Assembly: GCF_947501665.1 (NCBI RefSeq)
Contig: NZ_CANMWS010000011.1
Location: 1,382 to 65,381, forward strand
DNA from: an uncultured Shewanella sp.
GTDB lineage: Bacteria > Pseudomonadota > Gammaproteobacteria > Enterobacterales > Shewanellaceae
Direction: 5' to 3'
Length of the DNA: 64,000 bases
The position numbers were made by a program, and so were the translations under genes. How positions within the stretch are numbered: position 1 is the stretch's first letter; every line of letters begins with the position of its first letter. The notes under the pieces were generated by a model that saw only the letters and a list, made by a program, of their open reading frames with translations, did no database searches and was not told the origin of the DNA. Shown here one piece after another: positions 1,525-63,621 of this stretch.

Positions 1525-2463
1525 TTAATTAAACTTATCGGGAGACACAGTTAAGTTGATTTCTCTTAACTTTTCATAAACATCCGGTTCTGCAGAGACA
1601 GGTAAACGCCCGGCTTTTGTTATTGCAGTTTCTGCTGCACGACAGACCACATTATCACCACCCAATGTTTTCACTGCCGTGACAAAGCCATCTTTTGCCA
1701 AACGCACAAACACTTTACAACTTTTCCCTCTCATGGATTCGTTAGTGACTAAGTTACGTTCTATCGTGGCTTTAATCATCGCACGATATTTATTGACCTC
1801 TGACATTAGCTGTTTATTTTTAACACTTGACAGATTAGCTTGCTCTTTTGCTAATGCTTCTTGCATCATTTTTTCTTGTTCTTGCCGCGCTTTCTCTTCA
1901 GCTTGTCGCTTACGTTCAGCATCTGCTTTTCGTTTGCGTTCATCGGCAGCCTTTTTTGCAGCAGCTTCTTCTTGCTGACGTTTCTCTGCTGCTTGTTTAG
2001 CCGCAGCCTCAGCAGCTTGACGCTCTTTTTCCTTTTGTTTACGTTGCACCTCAGCTTGTTGTGCTTTTTCTAACTCTTGCTGTTGCTTCACTTTCGCCGC
2101 TTTTGCCGCCGCTAATGCTTGTTGTGTTTCTTTCTCTTTTTGTTGGCGTTGTTGCTCAAGTTTTTTGATTTTAAGTTGCTCTTGCTCTCTGTCCTTGCGC
2201 GCTTGATCAGCTTGACGTTCCAGCTCATCTTGACGTTGTTTTTCCTTACGTTCTGCCGCAAGTTTCTGAGCCTTCAATTTTTCAACTTGTTGAGTAACTT
2301 GTGACTGGTTCACAACAACCGCTTGCAATGCAGGTGCACTAGCTTGAGGCATCACTTCAGGTTTATCATCAAAATTGATATTCAACACCAACAACACAAT
2401 CACACCGATATGTATCGTTGCCGAAATAGAAATGGGTATACTTAACTTTGATTTTTCAGCCAC
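1525..2463 (-). CDS. tolA: Tol-Pal system protein TolA
   Basis: N-terminal TM helix, a long K/E/A/Q-rich helical domain and a C-terminal globular domain. It lies between tolR and tolB. Confidence 0.85.
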   Translation of the reverse strand: MAEKSKLSIPISISATIHIGVIVLLVLNINFDDKPEVMPQASAPALQAVVVNQSQVTQQVEKLKAQKLAAERKEKQRQDELERQADQARKDREQEQLKIKKLEQQRQQKEKETQQALAAAKAAKVKQQQELEKAQQAEVQRKQKEKERQAAEAAAKQAAEKRQQEEAAAKKAADERKRKADAERKRQAEEKARQEQEKMMQEALAKEQANLSSVKNKQLMSEVNKYRAMIKATIERNLVTNESMRGKSCKVFVRLAKDGFVTAVKTLGGDNVVCRAAETAITKAGRLPVSAEPDVYEKLREINLTVSPDKFN

Positions 2464-2901
2464 CTATTTCTCCTTTTGCGCATCAGTCATTAATCCAACC
2501 GAAGGCACTCCTGCATTTTGTAAGGTCACCATTAGTTGAATAACTTTCTCATAGGCAATACTTTTATCCGCTTTAACAACAACGGGTCTTTGGGGCTCTA
2601 ATTGAATAATAGCCGCCACTCTCACCGCTATTTCATCCAGACTCAGGGTCTGCCGATTACTGACACTCCCCACATCTAAATAATAATCACCTTGTGCATC
2701 AATCGATGCCACAACTGGCGGTTTACTGTCAGCGGGTAACGTTTCAGCTGCGCCTTGAGGCAAATCGACTTTCACTCCTTGTGTCACAATAGGGGCTGTG
2801 ACCATAAAAATAATCAAGAGTACCAACATAACATCGATATAAGGCACAACATTGATCTCAGCCACAGGACGACGACGTTTTCGTTGATAGCCTTGCTGCA
2901 T
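2464..2901 (-). CDS. tolR: Tol-Pal system protein TolR (ExbD/TolR family)
   Basis: 145 aa with a single TM helix and the INVVPYIDVMLVLLIIFM motif. Its stop abuts the tolA start. Confidence 0.9.
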   Translation of the reverse strand: MQQGYQRKRRRPVAEINVVPYIDVMLVLLIIFMVTAPIVTQGVKVDLPQGAAETLPADSKPPVVASIDAQGDYYLDVGSVSNRQTLSLDEIAVRVAAIIQLEPQRPVVVKADKSIAYEKVIQLMVTLQNAGVPSVGLMTDAQKEK

Positions 2902-3590
2902 TATCCTTTATCCTTTTCGCTATATGCTTGACGGTGCAATATGCTGGAGAACTCTTCCATAAAATTAGCATACGCCATTTCAATCTTCTCAACTTGAGTT
3001 GAAAAGCGATTATATGCAATTACAGCAGGAATAGCGGCAAATAATCCCATAGCTGTTGCAATTAACGCTTCAGCAATACCAGGAGCGACCATGGCCAACG
3101 TAGCATTTTCCACTGCACCCAATGCAATAAAAGAATTCATGATGCCCCATACTGTTCCAAACAAACCAATATAAGGACTTGTTGACCCTATCGTTGCCAA
3201 TAAAGGTAAATGAGTTTCTAAACTGTCCAACTCTCTAGACAGTGACACTCTCATTGCTCTATAACTCCCGTCCATCACCGCTTCTGGTACTCGACCGTTT
3301 AACTTACTTAATCTTGCATATTCTTTAAACCCAGTGACAAAGAGTAACTCAGTGCCAGTATTACTCTCTTGACGCGCGGAAAGCTCTTGATAAAGTTTAT
3401 TTAAATCTACACCGGACCAAAATTTATCTTCAAATTTTTCAGTTTGTACTTTTGCTGAGGTCAATAATTTACGTCGTTGTAAAATGACCCCCCACGACAC
3501 AACAGATAACGCCAGTAAGGTCAACATGACAAATTTAACCAGTAAACTGGCCTGTAAAAATAGACCAACTAAAGAGATATCAGCTTCCAC
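2901..3590 (-). CDS. tolQ: Tol-Pal system protein TolQ (MotA/TolQ/ExbB channel)
   Basis: 229 aa with 3 TM segments and the conserved [10 protein letters not shown] / [11 protein letters not shown] motifs. Confidence 0.93.
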
Positions 3591-3996: not shown

Positions 3997-4455
3997 TCTA
4001 AGTAAAAAGAAAGGCCTACTATACCTAGCCTATCGCCAATTGTGAATGCTCAGGCAAAATCAGATGCAACAATACATAACAAAAGAAAAAGCCTAAAAAC
4101 ACCATAAAGATCCAAATAAGCCCCGACTTTAGTATAAATCAATAAGACGAATAATAGACTCAACAAATAAAACAACAACTTAGACTTTGGTATTGTTATT
4201 CTTCATCAAGGTTGGCAAAGTGAATGTAAGTAGAAAATACTGTATGAATTTTATTGGAAAACATTAATAAATTAATAACATTAATTTATTATCATGCCGG
4301 ATTAATAACATATAAAATAATTAAATATCATTTATTTATATGATATTAACTCACTTTTAGTGTGCATAACTCACCAATCCAACATTAGAATTACTAATCA
4401 ATAAATACAGTTTTTCTCGTTTGTTATTATTAGATGATAATACTATCATTATTGC

Positions 4456-4626
4456 GTTCTCAGGAAGTGTCTACTAGCAGAGATGAGAACATAGAGCATT
4501 ATGCTTTAGTGAATGATTATAGAAGTGTTTCCACAGCTTCTTGTGCATGACTTCCTTCCTTCAATTTGTTGATTGCAAAACATATTCTTGCAGCCCGCTG
4601 ATATTCAGCGGGCATTTTTATTTTTA
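4456..4626 (+). ncRNA. Candidate small RNA of about 170 nt, unassigned family; 5' end inferred
   Basis: Sigma70-like promoter: TTGTTA at 4421-4426, a 17-nt spacer, TATCAT at 4444-4449. A 5' hairpin (GTTCTCA...TGAGAAC, 4456-4490) and a strong intrinsic terminator (4593-4626) flank a region with no convincing ORF. A Fur-box-like palindrome at 4433-4453 overlaps the -10. Confidence 0.35.
4593..4626 (+). terminator. Rho-independent terminator
   Basis: GCCCGCTG-atat-tCAGCGGGC stem followed by a T-rich run (TTTTTATTTTT). Confidence 0.75.
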
Positions 4627-4819
4627 AAACCAAAAAATCAACTAAATTATCAAAAAGTAGAAATGGGTTTTACTTTTTAAGCATAGATTAAATAATTAAT
4701 TATCATTAACATCATCATTTAACTACACTAACAGACTATTTTTTACACTTTATTGATCGTTGCTTTTTTAAAATCAATAACTTTCAAGTTAATTTATTTT
4801 ACCTACTATCCCTTAATCA

Positions 4820-5686
4820 CTAAGATTTGATGATCTTTATCACGACTCGCCGATTTTTATCCCTTTCCTCAATACTGCGATTAGAAGCCACTTGCCGCTT
4901 TTCACCATGAGCAAATGTCACAATACGATCATTATCAATTCCACTTGCAACCAATATCGCTTTAAGAGAATCAGCTCTATCTTGGGATAATGTTTGATTG
5001 TATTGCCGAGAGCCATAGCTGTCGCTATAGGCATCAATTAAAACCAACTCAACACTTGGGTCAACAGCCAAATAGGCATTAACTCGCGCTAACTGATGTT
5101 GAGCCATGTCTGTTAATTGATCACTACCAGAGCGGTAAGATAAAACTGTAAAAGCGATATCTTCAAATGAATACGGTAATAATTGAGATACACAAGCTCT
5201 AAAGGATTCATATGTCGACTTAAAATTAGCTGATGATAACCCTACGCTCACTCTATCTTGCTTGTTATACCAATCCAAATAAGAAAATGTTGGCTGCATA
5301 CCTGAATTAAGTTGAGCTAACATACTCCAAGCTAAACCATCTAATAACTCACCATTAAAAGAAGGATAAAAATCTAATTCAGCCAAGACTTGTCCCACGG
5401 TGCCAGGACGCCATTTAGGCGCCATACTCTGTAACTGTACTTTGGTCAATTTACTGGGTTTAACCCACATATCTAACGTAAAGTTAAGATTACTTTTTTT
5501 ATTGGCCTGACTGGTAAATATGGCTTTTCCATAGGCAGGAATATCATGGATTAATTGACACGATAACGGGTTATTAAGACTTAACTGCCACTGGGCCGTA
5601 TCAATATCAGCAACAAATGTTCTCAATTGAGCTTTAACTGAAAAAGCGCAACATAGTATAACAGCTAACAATATACGCCATCGCAT
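4820..5686 (-). CDS. motY: Sodium-type flagellar motor T-ring protein MotY (C-terminal OmpA-like domain)
   Basis: 288 aa with a signal peptide and a C-terminal OmpA/peptidoglycan-binding domain (NQTLSQDRADSLKAIL...). Size and the neighbouring rnt match my recollection of Vibrio motY. Confidence 0.75.
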   Translation of the reverse strand: MRWRILLAVILCCAFSVKAQLRTFVADIDTAQWQLSLNNPLSCQLIHDIPAYGKAIFTSQANKKSNLNFTLDMWVKPSKLTKVQLQSMAPKWRPGTVGQVLAELDFYPSFNGELLDGLAWSMLAQLNSGMQPTFSYLDWYNKQDRVSVGLSSANFKSTYESFRACVSQLLPYSFEDIAFTVLSYRSGSDQLTDMAQHQLARVNAYLAVDPSVELVLIDAYSDSYGSRQYNQTLSQDRADSLKAILVASGIDNDRIVTFAHGEKRQVASNRSIEERDKNRRVVIKIIKS

Positions 5687-5877
5687 ATCAACACACCTTT
5701 ATTATCAAATAATATATTCTATCGACTCTACTATCGATAACTTTAGACAAGCAGCATTTCAAGTCACGATTTTCATCACGCATGACAATCATCCCTTTTA
5801 CCCACGCTAAAAACATGCATTTTCAAGTCGCTTAGGGATAGGTATAATGCCACCAGATAAATAATTAGGATAAATGC

Positions 5878-6564
5878 ATGACTGATATTTGCGACGCGCA
5901 TAAAATGAAACACCGCTTTAGAGGCTACTTTCCTGTTGTCATCGACGTAGAAACAGCAGGATTTAATGCTCAAACGGATGCGTTGCTAGAAATAGCGGTA
6001 ACGCTATTAAAAATGGATAATGAAGGTAACTTAATCTTAGATAAAACACTGCATTACCATATAGAGCCTTTTGAAGGAGCGAACCTAGAACCTGAAGCAT
6101 TAGCCTTTAATGGTATCGATCCCACCAATCCACTTCGAGGCGCAGTAGATGAAAAACAAGCCTTTTTAGACATTTTCAAAGAAGTGAAAAAAGCACAAAA
6201 AGCCGCTGATTGTCATCGCAGTATCATTGTTGCCCATAACGCGGCCTTTGATCATGGTTTTGTCACCAAAGCCATAGAACGTAACGGATTAAAGCGCACA
6301 CCTTTTCATCCTTTCGCCACTTTCGATACCGCCACTCTTGCAGGACTTGCAATTGGGCATACTGTATTAGCAAAAGCCTGTAGTATGGCTGGAATTGCAT
6401 TTGATAATAAACAAGCCCATTCTGCTTTATATGATACGGAGCGAACCGCAGAACTATTTTGTCTTATTGTGAATCGTTGGAAGAGTTTAGGTGGCTGGCC
6501 CTTAATCGATGAGTCTCAAGAAAATAAAGCTGTAACCACCGAAGAATCCCTAAACGAAGCGTAA
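5878..6564 (+). CDS. rnt: Ribonuclease T
   Basis: The [29 protein letters not shown]-terminal DEDDh exonuclease motif is nearly identical to E. coli RNase T. Confidence 0.93.
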
Positions 6565-12673: not shown

Positions 12674-14311
12674 ATGCGTGTATTCGTATTATTTTTATTA
12701 TTAATACAAATTATCGCTTGCAGCCCCAATGAAACTGCAAGCAGAACGTTATTTGATGAATCTCATTTTCGTCAAGATATTAAAATCCTTTCATCGGATA
12801 AATTTGAAGGTCGCGCGCCCAATACTTATGGGGAAAAACTCACCTTACAATTTCTCACTCGCTCCTTTGAAGAAATGGGCCTAAAAAAACCAAATGGTAA
12901 AAACTACTTACAAGCAGTCCCAATGATAAGTTACGCCGCTTCAAATGAGCAAACCATTCGATTAGGTGATCTAAACCTACAAAACCACCAAGACATTATG
13001 CTCAATAGTCGTCATGAACAAAAGAATATATCTATAGAACAAGCACCTTTAGTCTTTGTCGGTTATGGTATAAATGCACCAGAATACCATTGGAATGACT
13101 ACCGAGATCTGGATATGAAAGGCAAAATCGCATTAATTTTGGTCAACGATCCAGGGTTTAAACATCCTAACAGTGAATTATTTAATGGAAAGGCCATGAC
13201 CTATTATGGACGCTGGACTTATAAATTTGAAGAAGCCAGTCGCCAAGGTGCATTAGGTGCCATTATCATTCATCAATCTCAAGCAGCAGGCTATCCTTGG
13301 TCTGTCGTACAAAATAGCTGGAATGGCCCACAACACGATCTGCAACCCGATAAAAATGACAGCAATAATCGTGTATTAATCGAAGGCTGGCTCACCTTTG
13401 ATAGGGCTAAGCAGTTGTTTAAACAAGCAGGGTTTCCACTCAAAAATTTACTCGATAGAGCATCTGCCAGTGAAATTAACCTGCCTCTAAACATGACAGC
13501 TTCTATTTCATTTGAAAATAAAGTAAGTTATTCAACTAGTTACAATGTTATCGCCACACTACCAGGCTCAACACAGTCTGATGAACATATTCTATTCACT
13601 GCCCATTGGGATCATATCGGTACTGACAAACAAAAATCAGGCGATAATATTTATAATGGTGCCGTCGATAATGCTTCTGGTACTGCAGGGATGTTGGCCA
13701 TAGCCAGAGAATTTATCAAACAAGCAAAAGAAGATGGCCCACAAGCACGGTCTTTAACTTTCATTGCCACCACAGGAGAAGAACAAGGTTTATTAGGCTC
13801 TCGTTATTATGTTGATCATCCCATTTATCCACTCAGCGAAACCGTTGCTGTGTTTAATTTAGATAGCAGTAATATTTATGGTCCCACCACAGATTATATT
13901 ATCGTTGGCAAGGGTAAGTCTGAACTAGAAAATTATTTGATAAAAAACGTCACGCGACAACATCGTCATGCGATCAGTGAAGCCAAACCAGAAGTCGGTG
14001 GGTTCTTCCGCTCAGATCATTTCAGTTTTGCTAAAAAAGGTGTGCCAGCGGTGTTTGCTGGCGGCGGTAATCAACCCATTGATGAAGCAACTGCCATCAA
14101 AAAGGCACAAATGAAAAAGAATGTACAAGGCTGTTATCATGATATTTGTGATGAATACCGAGAAGATTGGGATTTACGCGGTGCACTGGAAGATCTCAAT
14201 GTATATTTTAATGCTGCAAATGAATTATCAGATAATAATGATTGGCCAGGTTTCTACGAAGGCACTGAATTTCACATATTAAGACCCGCACACCCTCCCG
14301 TTACCCATTAA
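12674..14311 (+). CDS. M28-family metallo-aminopeptidase with PA domain, lipoprotein
   Basis: Lipobox (IIACS), HWDHIG and GAVDNASG metal ligand motifs, and a PA-domain insertion. Confidence 0.8.
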   Translation: MRVFVLFLLLIQIIACSPNETASRTLFDESHFRQDIKILSSDKFEGRAPNTYGEKLTLQFLTRSFEEMGLKKPNGKNYLQAVPMISYAASNEQTIRLGDLNLQNHQDIMLNSRHEQKNISIEQAPLVFVGYGINAPEYHWNDYRDLDMKGKIALILVNDPGFKHPNSELFNGKAMTYYGRWTYKFEEASRQGALGAIIIHQSQAAGYPWSVVQNSWNGPQHDLQPDKNDSNNRVLIEGWLTFDRAKQLFKQAGFPLKNLLDRASASEINLPLNMTASISFENKVSYSTSYNVIATLPGSTQSDEHILFTAHWDHIGTDKQKSGDNIYNGAVDNASGTAGMLAIAREFIKQAKEDGPQARSLTFIATTGEEQGLLGSRYYVDHPIYPLSETVAVFNLDSSNIYGPTTDYIIVGKGKSELENYLIKNVTRQHRHAISEAKPEVGGFFRSDHFSFAKKGVPAVFAGGGNQPIDEATAIKKAQMKKNVQGCYHDICDEYREDWDLRGALEDLNVYFNAANELSDNNDWPGFYEGTEFHILRPAHPPVTH

Positions 14312-14369
14312 AAACGACTGTGCAAGTGACAGATCTTTAACGTGTCACTTGCCTTACTTTAGTTATACC

Positions 14370-14535
14370 AACCTGAACTCGGATTAAGCAGCGCCGTTAA
14401 ATATCACAATTTTAGCGCCTATCTGTGTTCTGCTTTCTACTCATAGCGGGCTATTAGGTACGAAACCCTGCCTTGATATCGACCAAAATATCGGCATTTA
14501 GAAAAAGATGACATAAATAAAAACACAAAAAATAT
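14370..14535 (+). repeat. MITE-family copy A (left TIR plus about 165 bp; second TIR not found)
   Basis: Starts with AACCTGAACTCGG. It aligns over about 165 bp with the reverse complement of 19858-20082. Confidence 0.8.
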
Positions 14536-14859
14536 AAATGCAAACAAGTAATACAAAAAACAAAACAAACTCACAAATTAACAACAAAAATAGTGTTATG
14601 GAGCATTATTCAATATTGTTACGCCTTCATTGCAGAACCCACAATCTTTGCCCCTCCAGCACTAGCAATTATCGTATAATATCAAAAAAAAACCATCTAA
14701 AATGAACAATCAATAATATTAAGCACATTTAAATGAGGATATCATCATTAAAATGCCACTTTTTATGAATAATTCCACTTTTTAAATTTGTAAAAAAAGC
14801 CACTTAATGTCACAGTAGACTCAATTCAATACCAGATTGCCCTGCTCAGGAGTTTTACT

Positions 14860-22865: not shown

Positions 22866-23964
22866 GGCGCTGTTGTATCAAAATGTTGTCTATACTTATT
22901 AGGTGAAGCTAATCGATTGAAGGTAATAGCAATGAAAACAAAATTATTTGTGAGTAAACTTAACCAAATAACAAAATCACTTATCTCTATGACCCCAGGC
23001 CAAAGAGAAGTCGTTCATCAGTCAATTCAAGCATTAGACACTGATATTGCTATCGATGAGCTCATTCAACCCCTTTTTGATGTATCAGCACAATGCCCAC
23101 ATTGTCACTCTGCTAAGTTCAAGAAGTGGGGAAAAGCAAGGATGATACAAAGATATCGTTGTAACGAATGTCATAAGACCTTTAATAATAAAACAAATAC
23201 TCCACTTGCGAAACTTCATAAAAGTCATCTATGGGAGAAATACGCTCACTGTATGGAGCTGAAGTTAACATTAAGAGAGGCTGCTAAAATATGTGGTATT
23301 AACCTTAAAACGGCATTTTTGTGGCGACATCGATTTCTCAGTGCGCAAGCTGGCAGAAATGATGACAAGCTATCTGGGATTATTGAAGCAGATGAGTTCT
23401 TTCTCGCTTATTCAGAAAAAGGCTCTAGAACCATTAGTCTGCCACGTGTAAGTAGAAAGCAAGGAGGTGATGTCGATAAAAGAACGAAAGAAGGACAAGT
23501 GGCAATATTGCTCTCAATAGACCGAAGCAAACATATGATAGCCCCTGTACTATCAGCGGATACTGCATCAGAAATAGCGACAAATTTATCCAAGAATATT
23601 GAGGTTAATTCAGTGCTTTGTAGTGATGGTTCATGGGCATATACAGGTATTGCCAAAGAAAGACAATGTGATCATAAGCGGCTAATAAATAATAAACAAA
23701 GAGTCATAGATGGCATCTACCATATTCAAACCGTCAATGGTGAGATAGCGAACTTCAAGGCTTGGGTAAATGGAAAAATGAAAGGCATCGCGACTAAGTA
23801 TTTGCCCAATTATCTCGGTTGGTTTAAAGAAAGCAGTCAAAAGCGAGATAGTCGACAAATATTACAATTGGCTTATGGTAGACAACAGCATTCTGGTACA
23901 TAGCCATAAAAATACACTAAGTACTTAGCTTAAAAGTTATTACGTATTTTGATGGATAATCCCC
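22866..23964 (+). mobile_element. IS1595-family insertion sequence (boundaries tentative)
   Basis: Single transposase ORF. Candidate imperfect IRs are GGCGCTGTTGTATCAAAATG (22866-22885) and the reverse complement of 23945-23964 (GGGGATTATCCATCAAAATA), matching at 13 of 20 positions. I could not identify a target-site duplication. Confidence 0.6.
22932..23903 (+). CDS. IS1595-family transposase (Zn-ribbon + ISXO2-like DDE domain)
   Basis: CPHCHS...CNECHKTF zinc ribbon followed by a DDE-type domain (EADEFF..., SDGSWAY...). The ATG at 22932 is preferred over the tracked TTG at 22917. Confidence 0.85.
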   Translation: MKTKLFVSKLNQITKSLISMTPGQREVVHQSIQALDTDIAIDELIQPLFDVSAQCPHCHSAKFKKWGKARMIQRYRCNECHKTFNNKTNTPLAKLHKSHLWEKYAHCMELKLTLREAAKICGINLKTAFLWRHRFLSAQAGRNDDKLSGIIEADEFFLAYSEKGSRTISLPRVSRKQGGDVDKRTKEGQVAILLSIDRSKHMIAPVLSADTASEIATNLSKNIEVNSVLCSDGSWAYTGIAKERQCDHKRLINNKQRVIDGIYHIQTVNGEIANFKAWVNGKMKGIATKYLPNYLGWFKESSQKRDSRQILQLAYGRQQHSGT

Positions 23965-24772: not shown

Positions 24773-24972
24773 TCTTCCTGATTATTCCTGCCGACACCTG
24801 TCGTTTGACACCGTCTCAATTATTATGAGGACGAATGTTAAAACAATATAAATCAATTGCATACTTTTACGTTACATTCTTTTCAACCACAGGTTATATC
24901 AGTAAACAGGCATAAATCACCTTGTGGCCAACTCATCATGAGTAATGTAATTATTGCTTCTAGGTTAAACAA

Positions 24973-25032
24973 GGGAAAGGGAAAGGGAAAGGGAAAGGGA
25001 AAGGGAAAGGGAAAGGGAAAGGGAAAGGAGAA
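24973..25032. repeat. Hexanucleotide microsatellite: (GGGAAA)9 plus one degenerate unit
   Basis: Read directly from the sequence. It is intergenic, about 200 nt upstream of the start of the 24287-24772 gene. Confidence 0.95.
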
Positions 25033-25270
25033 GTGCATCACTTGTTAAGCCTGTCCTATCTTTTTTCTTTAAAGAATGCTATTCACCATCACACCAAACC
25101 AATTCAGACATCCAAAACATCCAAAACATCCAAAATTAATTTTCAACACTATAATCCAAAGCTTCAAGATACAAGTGGTCAACTAATTCTGGCCACTTCA
25201 CAGCCAACATCGAAACAAACTAAAACGGGCTGAATATATGGGAGTGTCCATATGTGTCTTGATTGTTTCC
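25031..25270. repeat. Island repeat family 2, expanded copy (about 240 bp)
   Basis: Shares a 33-nt head (AAGTGCATCACTTGTTAAGCCTGTCCTATCTTT), GGCCACT..CAG, AACGGG and a 31-nt tail (GGGAGTGTCCATATGTGTCTTGATTGTTTCC) with 26133-26250. The extra interior contains the 9-bp tandem repeat. Confidence 0.75.
25108..25134. repeat. 9-bp tandem repeat (ACATCCAAA) x3
   Basis: Read directly from the sequence. Confidence 0.9.
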
Positions 25271-26705: not shown

Positions 26706-26721
26706 GAAGCTTCCTTAAATG

Positions 26722-26760
26722 CCTAACTTTTGTATAGTGTTCCTGCTCATTTATCACACA
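26722..26760. repeat. Island repeat family 1, partial copy (motif A only)
   Basis: CCTAACTTTTGTATA followed by TGTTCCTGCTCAT, 17 nt upstream of the 26705 start codon. Confidence 0.6.
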
Positions 26761-26906
26761 GACCGCTATTCGAATGATGAATAAAAACTGCCCCAACAGG
26801 CACTTGCACCCAGCAAAATCTATCAGACTTCCTTGACACACTAACGCCCAAAAACAACAGTGATACAAGTGACGCTGGAAATGCTATCGCTTGTATACCC
26901 GTAAAA

Positions 26907-27365: not shown

Positions 27366-27448
27366 TATGCATGTAGCCCGTCCGCTTATACAGCAAAATG
27401 TCATTAATTAGTCAAATAACTAGGGTGTCTTGATTATTCTAGTTATGC
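27366..27448. repeat. Island repeat family 2, short copy
   Basis: TGCATGTAGCCCGTCC... and AGGGTGTCTTGATTATTCTAGTTATGC match the head and tail of family 2. It contains the hairpin ATAACTAG-15 nt-CTAGTTAT when read on the minus strand. Confidence 0.55.
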
Positions 27449-27452
27449 ATAT

Positions 27453-27737
27453 TTACGATATCTCAGGCCAACACTCAATTTTTGTGAAAACAATCCTATT
27501 AATTTTACCAACCCTATTGGTAAACCACGATTCTTTTACTAGAGTACCTCTGGCGATATCTCTCCAGATTTTAAAACCACGATGCCTGAAATTGTGATCA
27601 TTTCTCTCGTACTCTCCCGAAAAAGTATCGATCAAATCCCAGCGGTTCGATTCATGGAACCTTTTTTGAAGATCGTATCCCTTTTCAATATTATTTAATC
27701 TAGTATTTCGATCTGTACTGAATTCAATTTTATGCAT
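27453..27737 (-). CDS. Hypothetical protein (94 aa), no family recognised
   Basis: ATG with an AAGG SD. It is preceded by a family-1 repeat unit, like the neighbouring defence-like genes. Confidence 0.45.
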   Translation of the reverse strand: MHKIEFSTDRNTRLNNIEKGYDLQKRFHESNRWDLIDTFSGEYERNDHNFRHRGFKIWRDIARGTLVKESWFTNRVGKINRIVFTKIECWPEIS

Positions 27738-27756
27738 AGAACCTTAAACTAAGGCA

Positions 27757-27865
27757 TTTAATCTTTCTATACTGTCCATGTTCGATTACCGCAGCTCTTA
27801 CTTAACAAGCGGGCCAGTACTCTTTCTCAAAATAGACGTATGGCTAATACACTGTATTAGCAATT
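27757..27865. repeat. Island repeat family 1, full unit
   Basis: Motif A variant (CTTTCTATACTGTCCATGTTCG, 27763-27784) and motif B ending in the palindrome TAATACACTGTATTA (27845-27859). Confidence 0.7.
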
Positions 27866-28010
27866 AATAACTGATTAATTTACTCAATTATCACTCAATA
27901 CACCAGCCTTAACTCATACTAAGATCAGCATGCGTCTCAATCAATTTAACAATGGGTGGCTTGGTTGCTCCATGAAAATGCAAGACCTGACCCCCCATGT
28001 ATTTTATAAA

Positions 28011-28658
28011 TTAACCACATAACTTTAGACACCTTGGCTCTTGATTTTTTAAACGGAAATTTTCATTTGATACAAAGTTGTCTATTTCTGTTAATAACAG
28101 GTCTGTCGCCTGAGTTATAGACACAATATATTTCTCAATATTCTCCGAATCAGGAAGGATAGAATTTTCTCCATGTGCAATCCGGTTGCGAAACATAACA
28201 ATTCTGTCTATATCTCCGATTACACCTTTAAAAGACTCAAAATTAAAACCAAACACGGTACATAGCTCTTTAAGTACATTACTGTTTAAATTTGACTTTG
28301 TATCTATGTCTTTTTTAAAACTAATTTTTTTCTGAAATATCTCTATGAAACTGTCTGTAAAAACTACCTTTTGATCGAATGATTGTTTACCACTTAATGA
28401 ATTATATTTAGTTCCTAAACCAAGAACTATTAAATTTGTAGGCACTTCACTTGGGTTCAGTTTCAAGCTATTTAGGTAATCAATTAATAGTTTAAGAGAG
28501 CTAACAACATAGCCTTCCCAATGCGCATAAATCATAGGCAAACACATTCTATTCCACAAAGAACCATCCACTTTCTGAGGGTTCACTTTAAAAGTCGCTA
28601 ATTCTCCATCACGCCAGTTATTCTCTGCTTGAATTTCATCAATTAAATTATGCGTCAC
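28011..28658 (-). CDS. HEPN-domain protein (MAE_28990/MAE_18760-like predicted RNase)
   Basis: Alpha-helical, 215 aa, with an Rx4H motif in FRNRIAHGEN. The GTG start overlaps the upstream DUF262 gene by 11 nt. Confidence 0.65.
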   Translation of the reverse strand: MTHNLIDEIQAENNWRDGELATFKVNPQKVDGSLWNRMCLPMIYAHWEGYVVSSLKLLIDYLNSLKLNPSEVPTNLIVLGLGTKYNSLSGKQSFDQKVVFTDSFIEIFQKKISFKKDIDTKSNLNSNVLKELCTVFGFNFESFKGVIGDIDRIVMFRNRIAHGENSILPDSENIEKYIVSITQATDLLLTEIDNFVSNENFRLKNQEPRCLKLCG

Positions 28659-29700
28659 CTTTAAAAATCTCCAAGGCCCTATCCATACGCTTTCTAATTC
28701 TACCTGTTGAAAAAGTACTAGTACCTATACTGTTATAAACAGTATCATTTAGCAGAAGTCCAATTTTTTCGTCAATCGCATCTTCATTACCAATAACAGA
28801 TCCAAATGTTTTAGGTAAAGCGTAAGCTAATGAGTCAAAGATATGCAAAGCAAAATTACCTTTGGGTCTAAACACCGATTTTCCGTGTCTAGAAGCAATG
28901 TACTCAATAAATTGATTTAAGCTATTTTCTTCAAAATTTAAATCGAATGGTGTAGAAGCATTGGACACAGACTTCATGAATTCACTTAAAAATTGTGGAA
29001 CTGTCGTTTTAAAATCACCTTCGAGGTTTTTAAATGCAAAAAACCTTAAAGCTAACTCTTCTAGGAACATTTGCTCTAGCTTTGAATCACTAGGGCTAAT
29101 AATTTCAATAAATTCAGGCTTTTTAGCTACTTTTTTCAATATGCTATTTAAATCAACTTTGTAGCCTCTAAAAATACAATTTCTTATTTCTTGCTCAGAA
29201 AGTGGACTTGCACCTGTATTAAGACGATTAAATAATTCATATCTTATGTCTTCTTGGCTATCCCATTTTACAATTTCTACTCTACACACTGAGCGTTTAA
29301 TAGTTGTTTTAAGTTTTAATGGGAGTGTGCTGATAGTTGTATTTTCAAGCTCATTAACTAATTCACCTTGTGTGAGTATTGAATTGTTTTTCTCAGGCAA
29401 GGACTCCAACAAGCCAAAGAATGCAAATATTGATGAAATACGTTGAAGACCATCAACAACCTCCCATCTCCCATCATCATCTTCAGCTACAAATACAGGG
29501 GGAATTGGTATCCCAAGTAAAACGGATTCAATAAACCTTGTTTGTTGAAAAATAGACCACCTAAATACGCGTTGATACTCAGGTGAAATAAACAAATCAC
29601 CATCTTCAAACATATTCATCAACTCACCAAATGACATATCTAAACGATCTGTTTTTAAGGAGTTTCTTTTAAGAGCTATAGCTTCTTCTAACTTTGGCAT
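28648..29700 (-). CDS. DUF262 (ParB/GmrSD N-terminal-like) protein without a DUF1524 nuclease domain
   Basis: ISPEYQRVFRW and VVDGLQRISS motifs are characteristic of DUF262; 350 aa with an AGGGG SD. Confidence 0.8.
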   Translation of the reverse strand: MPKLEEAIALKRNSLKTDRLDMSFGELMNMFEDGDLFISPEYQRVFRWSIFQQTRFIESVLLGIPIPPVFVAEDDDGRWEVVDGLQRISSIFAFFGLLESLPEKNNSILTQGELVNELENTTISTLPLKLKTTIKRSVCRVEIVKWDSQEDIRYELFNRLNTGASPLSEQEIRNCIFRGYKVDLNSILKKVAKKPEFIEIISPSDSKLEQMFLEELALRFFAFKNLEGDFKTTVPQFLSEFMKSVSNASTPFDLNFEENSLNQFIEYIASRHGKSVFRPKGNFALHIFDSLAYALPKTFGSVIGNEDAIDEKIGLLLNDTVYNSIGTSTFSTGRIRKRMDRALEIFKGDA

Positions 29701-29777
29701 TTTATGCCCCTAATTTATGTATTATAAGATATTCGAATATTACCGCTTAGAGTAATCTAAAGTGAAGAGAATTATTT

Positions 29778-29872
29778 CCTAACTTTTGTATAATCTACAT
29801 AATCAACTACCACGTCAAAACAGTACTGTGACTAAAAATTAAAACATAGCTAATATACTGTATAGTATATAA
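29778..29872. repeat. Island repeat family 1, full unit
   Basis: CCTAACTTTTGTATA (29778-29792) and motif B ending in the palindrome TATACTGTATAGTATA (29854-29869). Confidence 0.7.
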
Positions 29873-29897
29873 TTTTTTAAAAACAGCCAACTTACTT

Positions 29898-31067
29898 TTA
29901 GAAATACAACCTAGCAATTTTTTCTAATTCTTGATTAAAACTTTCAACATCAGGGGACTCTAAAGTAAAAGTAAAGTCTAAAGTTACATGCTCATCATTA
30001 TGTGCAAGATTCTCTAGTGTTTCAGGAATTTCGATATGAACACGATTCACAAACTGCTCAATTTTGACGAGAGAATCATCTGAAAAACCTGATAATACTT
30101 TCAGTATTGGCTCAAAGTCTTCATTGACCTCTAGAGTAGTAAATGAAAGTTTCCAGTTGATAATTTGCTCGTAAACTTCAAGTAACCTCTGGCACACATG
30201 CTGTATTTTACGATAATCACCTTGTTTGCCAGGCTCACCAAACGACTTCAACACAGCATCTTTGACTAAAATTGTTGTGATTCTGATTAGTTTAAGCATC
30301 TCTTTATTGTGCGACGTAATCCAATCTAACACGTCTTGAGGTTCTTCAATAACAACTACATCGTTAAAGGAAATTCCGTATTCTAGGTCGAATTTTTTGT
30401 GTTCCAAACGATCTAGATATGTTTTGCATAGCAAAGCAAAAAGTAAATGTTCCCAGCCATCTGGTTTTTCAATCACTAACCTTGTTGCGTGAGGTGGGAA
30501 GAGATCCGAAGGTAGGTTTACTTCATTAACCTTCAGTTTTTTCCGAGCCTCTAAAGAGTCCATGAAAAGATAAGGTATTTGCTGAAGTAAAGCTGACTTG
30601 ATATCAGAGGCAGTATCAAACTTGTACACCCAGTTTGATTTAAAATGTGAAACATTTTCAACAAACTCGAATACTTTTTGGTTTTCTACATGGCTTGAAA
30701 AATCAGCATCTGGGTTATTCTTCCAAATGGGGAGGATATCCAAAATACCCGTGTTTACAAATACATAAATTGGTATACCTTTTCTTTTAGCTTCCAAGTA
30801 TTCAAGGTTTGTTATTGACTTCCCACCGTCAGTTTGAAAACCGTAACGGCTACCAATGATCAATACAAATATATCGGCTTTTTCTCGAACATTTCGGAGA
30901 CAATTAGAAATAGTATCCGTATCGGGAAAAACTGGAAATGAGTCATATTCAGACAATACTGGCTCAAGACCAAATGTTTGGATTAGATCCCTGATGTCAG
31001 ATCGAACTTGACCTAAGTCAAAACACGTTGAACTAACGAAAACTGTTGGTTTATAGCCAACTGGCAT
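29898..31067 (-). CDS. DUF4062-type (TIR-like / nucleoside 2-deoxyribosyltransferase-like) N-terminal domain protein with an uncharacterised C-terminal half of about 210 aa
   Basis: N-terminus TVFVSSTCFDLGQVRSDIRDLI...ADIFVLIIGSRYG...ITNLEYLEAKRKGIPIYVFV follows the DUF4062 pattern as I remember it. I recognise no family for the C-terminal half. Confidence 0.7.
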   Translation of the reverse strand: MPVGYKPTVFVSSTCFDLGQVRSDIRDLIQTFGLEPVLSEYDSFPVFPDTDTISNCLRNVREKADIFVLIIGSRYGFQTDGGKSITNLEYLEAKRKGIPIYVFVNTGILDILPIWKNNPDADFSSHVENQKVFEFVENVSHFKSNWVYKFDTASDIKSALLQQIPYLFMDSLEARKKLKVNEVNLPSDLFPPHATRLVIEKPDGWEHLLFALLCKTYLDRLEHKKFDLEYGISFNDVVVIEEPQDVLDWITSHNKEMLKLIRITTILVKDAVLKSFGEPGKQGDYRKIQHVCQRLLEVYEQIINWKLSFTTLEVNEDFEPILKVLSGFSDDSLVKIEQFVNRVHIEIPETLENLAHNDEHVTLDFTFTLESPDVESFNQELEKIARLYF

Positions 31068-31098
31068 ATTTAACCCTCATACTTTTTTATTGTGTACG

Positions 31099-31215
31099 CC
31101 CTAACCTTTGTATATTGCACATGTTCGCTCATCATGCCCTCGATTTAACCAACATGACAACACTCTTACCTACTCTCTGTTAGTCAAAACACATCACTAA
31201 TACATTGTATTTAAA
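31099..31215. repeat. Island repeat family 1, full unit
   Basis: CCTAACCTTTGTATA (31099-31113), CATGTTCGCTCAT, and motif B ending in the palindrome AATACATTGTATT (31199-31211). It lies 32 nt upstream of the 31067 start codon. Confidence 0.7.
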
Positions 31216-31423
31216 TCTATTAAGCTGAGATAGTCATAAAACTATAAGCTGCTTGCTCTCATATTGACTAGGAAAATACCACCAAAGTATTAACTTTGTA
31301 AACTAAATGTTTGTTTTTGATAATGATAGAAGTGCACACTATTGATTCAGATCACAACTTTATGGATACCTCCTATTAATACACACTCAAATCAAAGTAA
31401 CACCCTGCTTTTGATGTTCAACT

Positions 31424-31545
31424 CAGTGTAAACACGGTTGTGGCCGTCCGTGACATGGATGTCACGGCCGAAGCTATAGGGATATACTTGCGCTGTGTTA
31501 CAAGTGTGTTTGCACAAAAGCCTGCTGCAAGCGATTAGCATCAAT
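31424..31545 (+). ncRNA. Structured element copy 1 (candidate ncRNA or structured DNA element, unassigned)
   Basis: Closing helix GTGTAAACAC (31426-31435) / GTGTTTGCAC (31506-31515), inner hairpin CCGTGACAT-GG-ATGTCACGG (31448-31467), and a conserved tail GCACAAAAGCCTGCTGCAAGCGATTAGCATCA. Strand is inferred from G-U wobbles. Confidence 0.45.
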
Positions 31546-31786
31546 AAGATCAGAATTAATGGAAAACCAGTCCAACACCAAATAGCCTAAATGAATACAT
31601 CAAAAATGTGATCAACTTTCATTTGAAAGCTTACCTATGTAAGTAAGCACTCACTACAATCCATTAAGCGAAGCTTCATCTCTTCGAGCCAGCATAAAAC
31701 AATAAACAAAAATTTAGAATGTAGGTAGCTATAATTAAGCCCCTTCTTTTGATTTTGTCTTTGCTTTCATCTTTGCTTTTAAACCC

Positions 31787-31909
31787 CAGTGTAGATGCAA
31801 CTGTGACCGTTGATGGCAGGGATGCCATCGTCGAACTTACATGGAGTGTACTTGCAGTGTGTCACAGAGGTATCTGCACAAAAGCCTGCGGCAAGCAATT
31901 AGCATCATC
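31787..31909 (+). ncRNA. Structured element copy 2 (paralogue of 31424-31545)
   Basis: Closing helix GTGTAGATGC (31789-31798) / GTATCTGCAC (31870-31879) and inner hairpin GATGGCA-GGGA-TGCCATC (31812-31829), with the same conserved tail. The helices are kept by compensatory changes relative to copy 1. Confidence 0.45.
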
Positions 31910-32102
31910 AAGGGAACAAGTAAACAGGAAAGAACATTTAAGTATAAAACTTAATCAAAAGGGGGATACCTTCACTAGAAGGTTAAACTTAGGTGCTGAA
32001 ATAAAAGTCACTAGGCAATAACACTGAGTGCCGCATTAAAAGCGACACTCAACATGAGCTCAAATGCTCTAGCTCAAACTCTATTGAGCGGCTTAAAACC
32101 GA

Positions 32103-62026: not shown

Positions 62027-62773
62027 TTATACACGATACTCACAAATGATCCCCTTAGTACTTAATTCGACTAATAAATCTAAACAACCTTGTTTTAAAT
62101 TATCAGGCTCCATGGCAGTAAACGTTTCAATTAACCAAGTCTGAATATCGGCTAACCTGACACTTTCAAATTGAGACAAATATTCGAGCACTTGGGCCGT
62201 TAACGGCGTTAATGACAGAAAATTAACCTCATTTTTTTTGTCTCGATAAACACAAAATAGTTGTGGGGCCTTTGCAGGTTCTACAGGTTGATAATTAATA
62301 CAAATATGCTGAACATCATAAGCATACTGAGCAATTTGAGCTGAAGATGATAAACACAATGGCTTTGAGGGTATATCAGCAGCGCCGATAAAATGATGCG
62401 AAACATTGTCTACGGCAATAGATGCGACCAACTCAAGCCACTCATAGTGCGCGAGTTCTAACATGAAAACGGGATCTCGTTCATCCATTTCATATTCATA
62501 CTGCAAAAAAACAAGAAATTCTTCAGCAATATTTGAAAATAAGGGGGATTGGCAATCATGTTGTTTGAAAAAAGTTTGTACTAATACTTTCCATCGAACT
62601 GGAGAATAAAGGCTTTTTAATACAGGGAAAGCATTAGAGACAAAACCTGCGATATTATTAAAAAATAAATCTCGATAGACATCCATTCGCTCTACAGTCA
62701 TTCCATTGGGTAAAGGGCTGTCAGGATCACGAATATAATCCATAAAGGTTTTTTGTATCGCAATAAAAGACAT
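62027..62773 (-). CDS. hvfC: DUF2063 protein, HvfC/BufC-type partner of the DUF692 maturase
   Basis: 248 aa, with an N-terminal pattern typical of DUF2063 (...YRDLFFNNI..FVSNAFPV...). Its start overlaps the DUF692 gene stop by 1 nt. Confidence 0.75.
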   Translation of the reverse strand: MSFIAIQKTFMDYIRDPDSPLPNGMTVERMDVYRDLFFNNIAGFVSNAFPVLKSLYSPVRWKVLVQTFFKQHDCQSPLFSNIAEEFLVFLQYEYEMDERDPVFMLELAHYEWLELVASIAVDNVSHHFIGAADIPSKPLCLSSSAQIAQYAYDVQHICINYQPVEPAKAPQLFCVYRDKKNEVNFLSLTPLTAQVLEYLSQFESVRLADIQTWLIETFTAMEPDNLKQGCLDLLVELSTKGIICEYRV

Positions 62774-63621
62774 TAAGCACTCCTTGAAAAATGCGCTTGA
62801 GATGAATGGATCGTCTTCTTTTGATACTGCTTAATTTTTCTGATTTCCATTAATAACGTTTCTGTTTCAGGAATATTAAAGTCACGTTCAAGTAAAGTTG
62901 GAAACACTCCATGACGTTGATGACATTCATGCAATAACTGCCAAACAGGATCGCTCACATCCGCGCCATGGGAATCAATGATTAAATCTGCTGTTTGTTG
63001 AAAATGTCCTGCTATATGCAAATAATGAATACGTTCCTGCGGGATACTGTTCAAAAAGGCCAATGGATCATAACGATGATTAACTGAATTGACATAAATA
63101 TTATTGACATCCAAGAGCAATTGGCAATCAGCTTCAGTAAGTACCGCCAAGATAAACTCAAGTTCTGTCATTTCAGCGCCAGGGGCGGCATAAAAAGACA
63201 CATTCTCAAGGATCAAGGGGCGCTCTATAATATCTTGTACTTGTTTAACTCGCTCGGCAACATGAAACACCGCTTCTTGAGTAAAAGGGATCGGCATTAA
63301 ATCATATAAATGCCCAAGTCCCGAACAATAGCTTAAGTGCTCTGAATACACCTGAATTTGATGCAAGTCTAAAAACTGCTTAATGTCTTTCACAAAATCA
63401 ATATCTAGCTTTTCGGGTCCACCAATAGATAAAGATAACCCATGGGTATAAAATTCATATTGTTCGGTTAACGCTTGAAATGATTTTTGAAATCTCCCGC
63501 CTAGTTGCATCCAGTTTTCAGGTGCGACTTCGAAAAAATCAATATCATCTGGGACATGATGTGCCATCTCATTAAGCATTTCCCGCCTAAGGCCGAGTCC
63601 AACTTTTGGCGCTGTGAGCAT
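62773..63621 (-). CDS. hvfB: DUF692 / MNIO-family (MbnB-like, HvfB-type) peptide-modifying iron enzyme
   Basis: 282 aa TIM-barrel-like UPF0276 pattern (VGLGLRRE...FFEVAPENW...HGLSLSIGG...YSEHLS...ERD). It is adjacent to a Cys-repeat precursor. Confidence 0.85.
   Translation of the reverse strand: MLTAPKVGLGLRREMLNEMAHHVPDDIDFFEVAPENWMQLGGRFQKSFQALTEQYEFYTHGLSLSIGGPEKLDIDFVKDIKQFLDLHQIQVYSEHLSYCSGLGHLYDLMPIPFTQEAVFHVAERVKQVQDIIERPLILENVSFYAAPGAEMTELEFILAVLTEADCQLLLDVNNIYVNSVNHRYDPLAFLNSIPQERIHYLHIAGHFQQTADLIIDSHGADVSDPVWQLLHECHQRHGVFPTLLERDFNIPETETLLMEIRKIKQYQKKTIHSSQAHFSRSA

Follow-up and report, generated by a model that had tools for sequence, protein, structure and literature searches.

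A DUF262–HEPN Gene Pair of an Uncultured Shewanella: A Probable Anti-Phage Module of the PD-T4-2 Type, Carried Elsewhere as an Integron Cassette

Introduction

What is the function of two overlapping genes, one for a DUF262 protein and one for a small HEPN protein, that lie at positions 28,011–29,700 of a 64,000-nucleotide stretch from an uncultured Shewanella sp. (contig NZ_CANMWS010000011.1), and how does such a pair travel between genomes? The whole stretch is referred to here as the window, and the two products as protein A (DUF262) and protein B (HEPN). An earlier reading of the letters alone, called here the original prediction, had described the pair as a split GmrSD-like architecture with a predicted RNase partner. 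It is proposed here that the two genes probably make up an intact phage-defence module of the PD-T4-2 type, to which it is likened by its architecture, its protein families and PADLOC models, and that it probably represents a distinct subfamily within this kind.

PD-T4-2 is listed as 'DUF262, HEPN' and comes from Escherichia coli ECOR65, where it consists of two open reading frames (ORFs) over 1540 bp (Vassallo 2022, PMC9519451). Cloned on a plasmid, it guards E. coli K-12 from T4, and its deletion in native ECOR65 brings back T4 plaquing (PMC9519451). Since this architecture has already been validated, the one in the window is a known one and not a new kind of system, and a role of the window pair in phage defence is suggested by analogy with that work. 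The statement of the original prediction that no experimental characterisation was known is therefore outdated; the computational prediction of the pairing, to which it also referred, does exist, as a ParB-HEPN operon was predicted in 2013 by Anantharaman et al. (PMC3710099). It has been reported that PD-T4-2, Menshen and Dazbog form a group of DUF262 systems without DUF1524 (PMC12065111; PMC10952713). PD-T4-2 itself is called 'largely uncharacterized' (PMC12065111), and no mechanistic study of it was found in the literature.

The Two Genes and Their Products

Gene A (28648–29700, minus strand) starts with ATG and encodes 350 amino acids (aa) with a DUF262 domain and a C-terminal helical domain, a predicted sensor or regulator; gene B (28011–28658, minus strand) starts with GTG and encodes a stand-alone HEPN protein of 215 aa, a predicted RNase effector. 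Together they span 1690 bp. Read from the sequence, the two genes share the 11 nucleotides (nt) 28648–28658, and the putative translational-coupling junction (28648–28672, minus strand) is composed of a GGAG at 28669–28672, the GTG of gene B at 28656–28658 and the TAA of gene A at 28648–28650, the GGAG lying within the 3' end of gene A on the minus strand, 10 nt 5' of the GTG of gene B. The guanine–cytosine (GC) fraction is 0.32 at 28–30 kb, compared with approximately 0.37–0.45 elsewhere in the window and approximately 0.40 for the window as a whole. Both ORFs, the overlap with its GTG start and the AT-rich composition are thus as the original prediction had given them. A promoter and terminator scan yielded a site count not above that of shuffled sequence, and Rfam and tRNA scans of the window gave no match.

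Protein A matches a single Pfam family, GmrSD_N/DUF262 (E 1e-24, 88 bits against a cut-off of 33), and the two peptides from which DUF262 had been assigned, ISPEYQRVFRW (residues 38–48) and VVDGLQRISS (residues 81–90), belong to it, so that this assignment is borne out by the HMM search. A ParB-like DUF262 NTPase domain occupies residues ~27–177 and is followed by a C-terminal helical domain (~180–350) similar to NsnA-C or 'ParBDB'. As shown by an alignment of 25 homologues, three of them very distant, DUF262 motifs I–III (QRxxxW, DGxQR and FxRLNTG) are invariant, the invariant residues of protein A being Q43, R44 and W48; D83, G84, Q86 and R87; and F157...N161. In the AlphaFold2 (AF2) model, the C-terminal domain has a predicted local distance difference test score (pLDDT) of 75–96 per 10-residue block, and the N-terminal half is poorly modelled. 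A sequence search of the PDB matched the DUF262 N-terminal motifs only. No DUF1524 match was found by Pfam in protein A, in protein B or in two neighbouring proteins, in agreement with the observation that protein A lacks the DUF1524 half.

Protein B is assigned by Pfam to HEPN_RiboL-PSP (PF18735; E 5.2e-29, 102 bits against a cut-off of 28) and to HEPN_MAE_28990 (PF18737; E 7.7e-24), and the HEPN assignment that had been made from FRNRIAHGE (residues 156–164, with the Rx4H motif at R157–H162) is therefore upheld. The pattern RN.IAHGEN is invariant in 30 homologues of protein B and comprises R157, N158, H162, G163, E164 and N165. The AF2 model (mean pLDDT 85) is all-helical, as had been predicted, and places Rx4H at the C-terminal end of helix 140–161. 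The last 9 residues are a local extension that is absent from the homologues (~206 aa), and in the model, where most of residues 206–215 have a pLDDT below 50, it appears disordered and lies past the last helix. A search of PDB sequences with protein B matched nothing. The family has 1818 cluster representatives at E<=1e-3; among the 150 best, a stand-alone protein of ~205–220 aa is the prevailing form.

Comparison with Known Defence Systems

Like the window pair, PD-T4-2 encodes first a DUF262 protein that lacks DUF1524 and then a small stand-alone HEPN protein from the RiboL-PSP/MAE_28990 clade. The top HHpred matches of PD-T4-2B are PF18735 and PF18737 (PMC9519451), which are also the families of protein B, although HHpred was needed in the former case and a direct Pfam match sufficed in the latter. 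The two pairs differ in size, with 1540 bp and a B protein of ~165 aa in PD-T4-2 and 1690 bp and a B protein of 215 aa (206 in relatives) in the window. When protein A was compared with PADLOC models, it was matched nearly end to end both by NsnA (E 1.4e-64; residues 11–347 on model positions 40–380 of 385), which is its best PADLOC match, and by PD-T4-2_A (E 5.9e-47; model positions 41–362 of 363, that is, 322 positions).

The NsnA protein of Menshen (NsnABC; Millman 2022; Li et al. 2025) has the same layout as protein A, with a ParB-DUF262 domain followed by a helical 'ParBDB'-type domain, and has been proposed to be a sensor with a DUF262 and DNA-binding-domain arrangement (PMC12065111). 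However, Menshen also has the NsnB ATPase and the NsnC inPIN-nuclease, whereas in the window gene A is directly followed by the HEPN gene and then by an unrelated 94-aa ORF, neither of which gives an ATPase or NsnB/C match. GmrSD, BrxU and SspE have in common with protein A the DUF262 NTPase domain with its QRxxxW, DGxQR and FxxxN motifs, but they carry a DUF1524 His-Me DNase, which the window pair has neither fused nor adjacent, its predicted effector being an RNase. The label 'split GmrSD' is consequently not retained: a DUF1524 half is missing from the surroundings of the two genes, and protein A, which resembles NsnA from end to end, is better described as a predicted Menshen/PD-T4-2-type sensor coupled to an RNase than as half a GmrSD. 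On the side of protein B, AbiV, AbiF/AbiD, ApeA and HepT have the same Rx4-6H motif, all-helical fold and defence or accessory location, but protein B belongs to another HEPN family (PF18735/PF18737) and has a DUF262 protein as its obligatory partner, where the others have an MNT antitoxin, an RNA antitoxin or none.

A further pair of this kind is found on the E. coli IncX1 plasmid NZ_OK217279.1 (2378–4018 of the locus retrieved), where a DUF262 gene is followed by a 177-aa RiboL-PSP HEPN gene. Its DUF262 protein has 365 aa and is 27% identical to protein A over the full length; the pair directly follows the plasmid replication gene and may be nearer to PD-T4-2 in size. A blastn search at a distant setting with the window module against all complete E. 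coli genomes gave no match.

Several results weigh against the assignment to the PD-T4-2 type. The NsnA model gives protein A a better score than PD-T4-2_A does; Foldseek searches of the PDB with the two models gave no significant match for either protein, with SspE, BrxU and ParB ranking top for protein A; and the comparison of protein B with the 177-aa HEPN protein of the E. coli plasmid by hhalign was not significant, with the Rx4H motifs aligned. In addition, the PADLOC model PD-T4-2_B did not match protein B at E<=1; since none of four other DUF262-linked HEPN partners matched it either, this negative is uninformative, and the model may be narrow or absent. The copy in the window also carries 9 extra residues at the C-terminus of protein B and is flanked by degenerate sites, and a recent inactivation is conceivable, if unlikely. 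With these points included, the PD-T4-2-type defence module is still regarded as the likely identity of the pair.

Conservation of the Pair in Other Genomes

Relatives of protein A number in the thousands, and full-length ones, ~70% identical, occur in many genera, including Vibrio, Pseudomonas, Xanthomonas, Salmonella, Yersinia, Providencia, Pseudoalteromonas and Bermanella, as well as in the betaproteobacterium Noviherbaspirillum. Sixteen comparison loci (L001–L016) were studied, 14 of which run beyond the stop codon of the DUF262 gene, and in all 14, from gamma- and betaproteobacteria, a downstream ORF opens at an overlapping GTG. The downstream gene is called HEPN by Pfam (PF18735/PF18737) in 8 of these 14; in three others (L009, L010 and L014) the ORF has the same overlap but is cut by the contig end and is too short for a domain call. 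In L001–L005 the downstream ORF has 206–216 aa, and a script located its GTG start in the overlap window. Among ten loci analysed for overlap length, eight have 8–11 nt and two have 29 and 44 nt, the last two values probably being overestimates, since the script accepted whichever start codon it met first. The overlapping two-gene operon that the original prediction had described is thus kept across relatives, in its pairing as well as in its GTG start. Close relatives, with protein A 93–94% identical, occupy quite different neighbourhoods, the pair being more than 90% identical while the flanks differ; the pair moves as one unit, and its genes are co-inherited.

More distant DUF262–HEPN pairs were found on a Roseomonas plasmid, in a temperate Terrisporobacter phage and in a P2-like coliphage; in these, too, the gene paired with DUF262 belongs to PF18735/PF18737. 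DNA methyltransferase genes adjoin two of these distant pairs, at 4419–5912 of the locus from the Terrisporobacter phage TVCOM_ph1 (L017) and at 2337–3041 of that from the P2-like coliphage (L019), which recalls the operons of MAE_28990, ParB and methylase genes noted in 2013 (PMC3710099). Such neighbours of phage-borne pairs hint that the signal to which the system responds may concern the modification state of DNA.

The tight overlap of the genes and their apparent co-translation, together with their occurrence on integron cassettes, would also suit a toxin–antitoxin-like addiction module, in which protein B is an RNase toxin and protein A its neutraliser, and which stabilises a cassette array or island with no dedicated anti-phage function. 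Stress or dormancy roles have been proposed for integron HEPN cassettes (Anantharaman et al., PMC3710099), and plasmid-borne pairs adjoin a replication gene or RelE/ParE genes. On the other hand, protein A, with 350 aa, invariant NTPase motifs and a DNA-binding-type domain, is far beyond a typical antitoxin, and the same architecture protects from phage and can be deleted from native ECOR65 with the strain remaining viable (PMC9519451). An addiction module as the whole explanation is thus unlikely, and addiction and defence roles are not mutually exclusive.

Cassette Boundaries and Chromosomal Site

When the window was aligned with relatives (L006, L007, L008, L012 and L015), the sequences were found to be unrelated 5' of a G(T/G)TAGG and conserved 3' of it. 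Similarity starts exactly at this motif, 78 nt 5' of the ATG of gene A, and stops at the stop codon of the HEPN gene. The 5' boundary thus lies at the integron core site G|TTRRRY, which is present in the window, and the HEPN stop codon of the relatives sits within GTCTAAC or GCCTAAC, the integron inverse core. The conserved cassette leader (29701–29783, minus strand) starts with GTTAGG (29783 to 29778), runs to the ATG and contains a TATAAT hexamer and an AGGGG ribosome-binding site. At the other end, a remnant of the attC inverse core (R''), GTCTAAA, is found at 28024–28030 (minus strand), mutated relative to the GTCTAAC/GCCTAAC of the relatives; an insertion of ~16 nt at R'' shifts the frame and adds the 9 extra codons to gene B in the window.

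Canonical attC hairpins stand on both sides of the pair in the metagenome contigs L012 and L013 (z scores of -4.5 and -6.1 in L012), and one stands 3' of the pair in Pseudoalteromonas sp. T1lg23B (L004; z -5.4). Given the boundaries at GTTAGG and R'' and the attC hairpins of these loci, the pair is an integron gene cassette in Pseudoalteromonas and in a metagenome relative, and it circulates in this form; the original prediction had not recognised these cassette boundaries, with the start at GTTAGG and R'' at the stop codon. Neighbouring cassettes in L011–L013 encode DUF4238 and NACHT proteins. It has been reported that chromosomal integron cassettes hold defence systems (10.1101/2024.07.02.601686). 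The pair resembles the cassette-borne anti-phage systems of Darracq et al. (2024 preprint) in lying between attC sites in L012 and L013, with one downstream in L004, and in a cassette that opens with GTTAGGC and has its stop codon within R''; neither DUF262 nor PD-T4 systems are mentioned in that text. Unlike such systems, the repeats around the window pair keep only the GTTAGG core, with no attC hairpin and no IntI nearby. Among the part of the window ORFs that was scanned, no integrase was found.

The sole mobility gene among the scanned ORFs encodes an IS1595-family transposase (DDE_Tnp_IS1595, 1.8e-15; 22917–23903, plus strand) and marks the far end of the run of small accessory genes.

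The chromosomal site can be compared with that of a close relative. As for the host lineage, the adjacent DUF885 protein is 91% identical to one of an uncultured Shewanella sp. and 86% identical to that of S. surugensis. The closest relative (GCA_947491715.1, locus L140) has the same core order, topA ... DUF885-ppiC-S4-rraB. After rraB, blastn shows that synteny with this relative is lost from 31100 to 27440 and resumes at a DUF1428 gene, so that a 3.7-kb variable segment (27440–31100, minus strand) with a DUF4062 gene, the DUF262–HEPN pair and a 94-aa ORF is absent from L140. In the slot of the module, L140 has a 240-aa HEPN_AbiV gene alone (13845–14567; Pfam 4.9e-24), directly 3' of the same GTTAGG-ended repeat. 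Since the syntenic slot holds a different defence-type gene, the module is accessory and lies in a strain-variable hotspot, and the accessory location that had been put forward in the original prediction is confirmed by a syntenic site without the module.

The repeats that mark this site stand at every junction of the variable segment and form a family of ~90–125 nt, of which nhmmer finds four copies in the window and a single one in L140 (13713–13839); in the loci compared with this program, the family was seen only in the window and L140. Every copy stands just 5' of a gene and ends in TATACAAA(A/G)GTTAGG, except for one degenerate core. Repeat E1 (31099–31225, minus strand) is the chromosomal edge of the variable segment and is common to L140, from which the window diverges right after GTTAGG. 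Repeat E2 (29778–29868, minus strand; nhmmer E 2.6e-14) lies 5' of gene A and ends in TATACAAAAGTTAGG. Repeat E3 (27758–27865, minus strand; nhmmer E 2.5e-24) lies 3' of gene B and 5' of the 94-aa ORF, contains the palindrome GCTAATACAGTGTATTAGC and has the degenerate 3' core GATTAAA. E2 and E3 thus bracket the module, as had been noticed before. Repeat E4 (26721–26836, minus strand) lies 5' of an ORF for a 148-aa membrane protein and ends in GTTAGGC. A pattern search of the window with the 24-nt repeat core gave 3 matches against 0 expected. Each repeat has an internal palindrome and a direct, not inverted, copy of TATACA...TTAG. Canonical attC sites were tried as an explanation of the repeats and rejected: a strict R''/R' scan found none, the repeats fold like shuffled sequences (z -0.5 for E2, -0.5 to -2 for the elements), and their ends do not pair in the manner of attC. 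Xer/dif-like sites and LexA boxes were likewise set aside by eye, the conserved arms being missing. A metagenome scan with the 16-mer TATACAAAAGTTAGGC returned at least 120 single chance matches, none of which shares the extended repeat, and is uninformative. The copy in the window is read here as a cassette that has settled in an array of non-canonical or degenerate form.

These features raise the question of whether the copy in the window is in decay, as a relic cassette left behind with no integrase and no longer expressed or functional. The flanking sites that do not fold as attC, the R'' mutated to GTCTAAA, the ~16-nt insertion that altered the C-terminus of protein B and the lack of an integrase among the window ORFs checked would fit such a state, but both ORFs are of full length with all family-invariant residues present, the conserved leader and its ribosome-binding site are intact, and the extension lies, according to the model, past the last helix of protein B. 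A relic is accordingly regarded as quite improbable, and the pair is taken further here as a probably intact defence module.

Proposed Mechanism and Significance

For an intact module of the PD-T4-2 type, a mechanism can be proposed from the domains of the two proteins. It has been reported that DUF262 in GmrSD and SspE works as a sensor with NTPase activity and turns on the nuclease linked to it (PMC12065111), and that HEPN domains with Rx4-6H are RNases (PMC3710099). Protein A would act as the sensor and regulator; binding and hydrolysis of nucleoside triphosphate (NTP) are predicted for its ParB-fold DUF262 domain, and the helical domain at its C-terminus is similar to 'ParBDB', a DNA-binding domain of NsnA, SspE and GmrSD. 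Protein B would be a stand-alone HEPN ribonuclease, produced in step with protein A by translational coupling through the GTG and the GGAG, and would probably be kept inactive by protein A. When phage nucleic acid, possibly modified or unmodified DNA, meets protein A, an NTP-dependent conformational change may release or activate protein B, which would then cut tRNA, mRNA or rRNA, so that translation stops and the infection is probably aborted.

A DNA-targeting, restriction-like system, in which foreign DNA would be cut or nicked by protein A itself, a ParB-like nuclease, with the HEPN protein as an accessory or non-catalytic subunit that binds nucleic acid, is very improbable: Anantharaman (2013) does name the partner 'ParB nuclease' and notes its linkage to DNA methylase genes (PMC3710099), and methyltransferase genes adjoin the pairs of phage TVCOM_ph1 and the P2-like phage, but in GmrSD, BrxU and SspE it is DUF1524 and not DUF262 that cuts (PMC12065111; PMC10952713), the invariance of the Rx4H residues of protein B in its 30 homologues suggests an active RNase, and methylase genes are missing from the vicinity of the pair both in the window and in close relatives.

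The sensor-and-RNase module preferred here has a validated phage-defence architecture, DUF262–HEPN, whose mechanism is still undescribed. The subfamily is handy for study, as protein A is ~70% identical between distant Proteobacteria and its catalytic motifs are invariant, and the pair is compact (1.7 kb) and has its own conserved leader; it may thus serve as a convenient model for how a ParB-like NTPase controls an RNase. It is also a further case of a defence system that travels as an integron cassette, here lodged at a chromosomal hotspot where a sister strain has a different HEPN defence gene. Current concepts are not changed by the finding.

A bolder proposal has two parts, namely that the family of the pair is the simplest example of a ParB-type NTP switch, reading a feature of phage DNA and directly licensing an RNase, and that the GTTAGG repeats are non-canonical attI-like recombination sites; that both parts hold jointly is doubtful. 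If they did, attI-like repeats would let a Shewanella chromosome without a nearby integrase capture and swap cassettes at a fixed site after rraB. To our knowledge, an RNase licensed by an NTP switch in this way has not been described for PD-T4-2 or any of its relatives.

Neighbouring Features in the Window

Upstream of gene A, within the variable segment, the gene at 29898–31067 (minus strand) forms its own repeat-bounded unit and is absent from L140; its product has 389 aa and carries DUF4062 (Pfam 1.5e-20) at the N-terminus. The protein has a weak PADLOC match to PycTM (E 0.009), and the gene may likewise serve in defence. Two direct repeats of ~75–110 nt (31455–31565 and 31815–31930, minus strand) separate rraB from the variable segment, 77% identical to each other and conserved in the Shewanella loci L140 and L141; they have no Rfam match and no convincing conserved structure, and could be small-RNA genes or regulatory sites.

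Elsewhere in the window, an intergenic hexanucleotide microsatellite at ~24883–25048 appears as (GK)n or (FP)n in spurious ORFs. Meanwhile, a gene for a RiPP (ribosomally synthesised and post-translationally modified peptide) modification enzyme of the MbnB/TglH/ChrH family (62773–63621, minus strand) stands beside a DUF2063 gene (62027–62773, minus strand), a pairing that is typical of a RiPP or metal-binding peptide locus.

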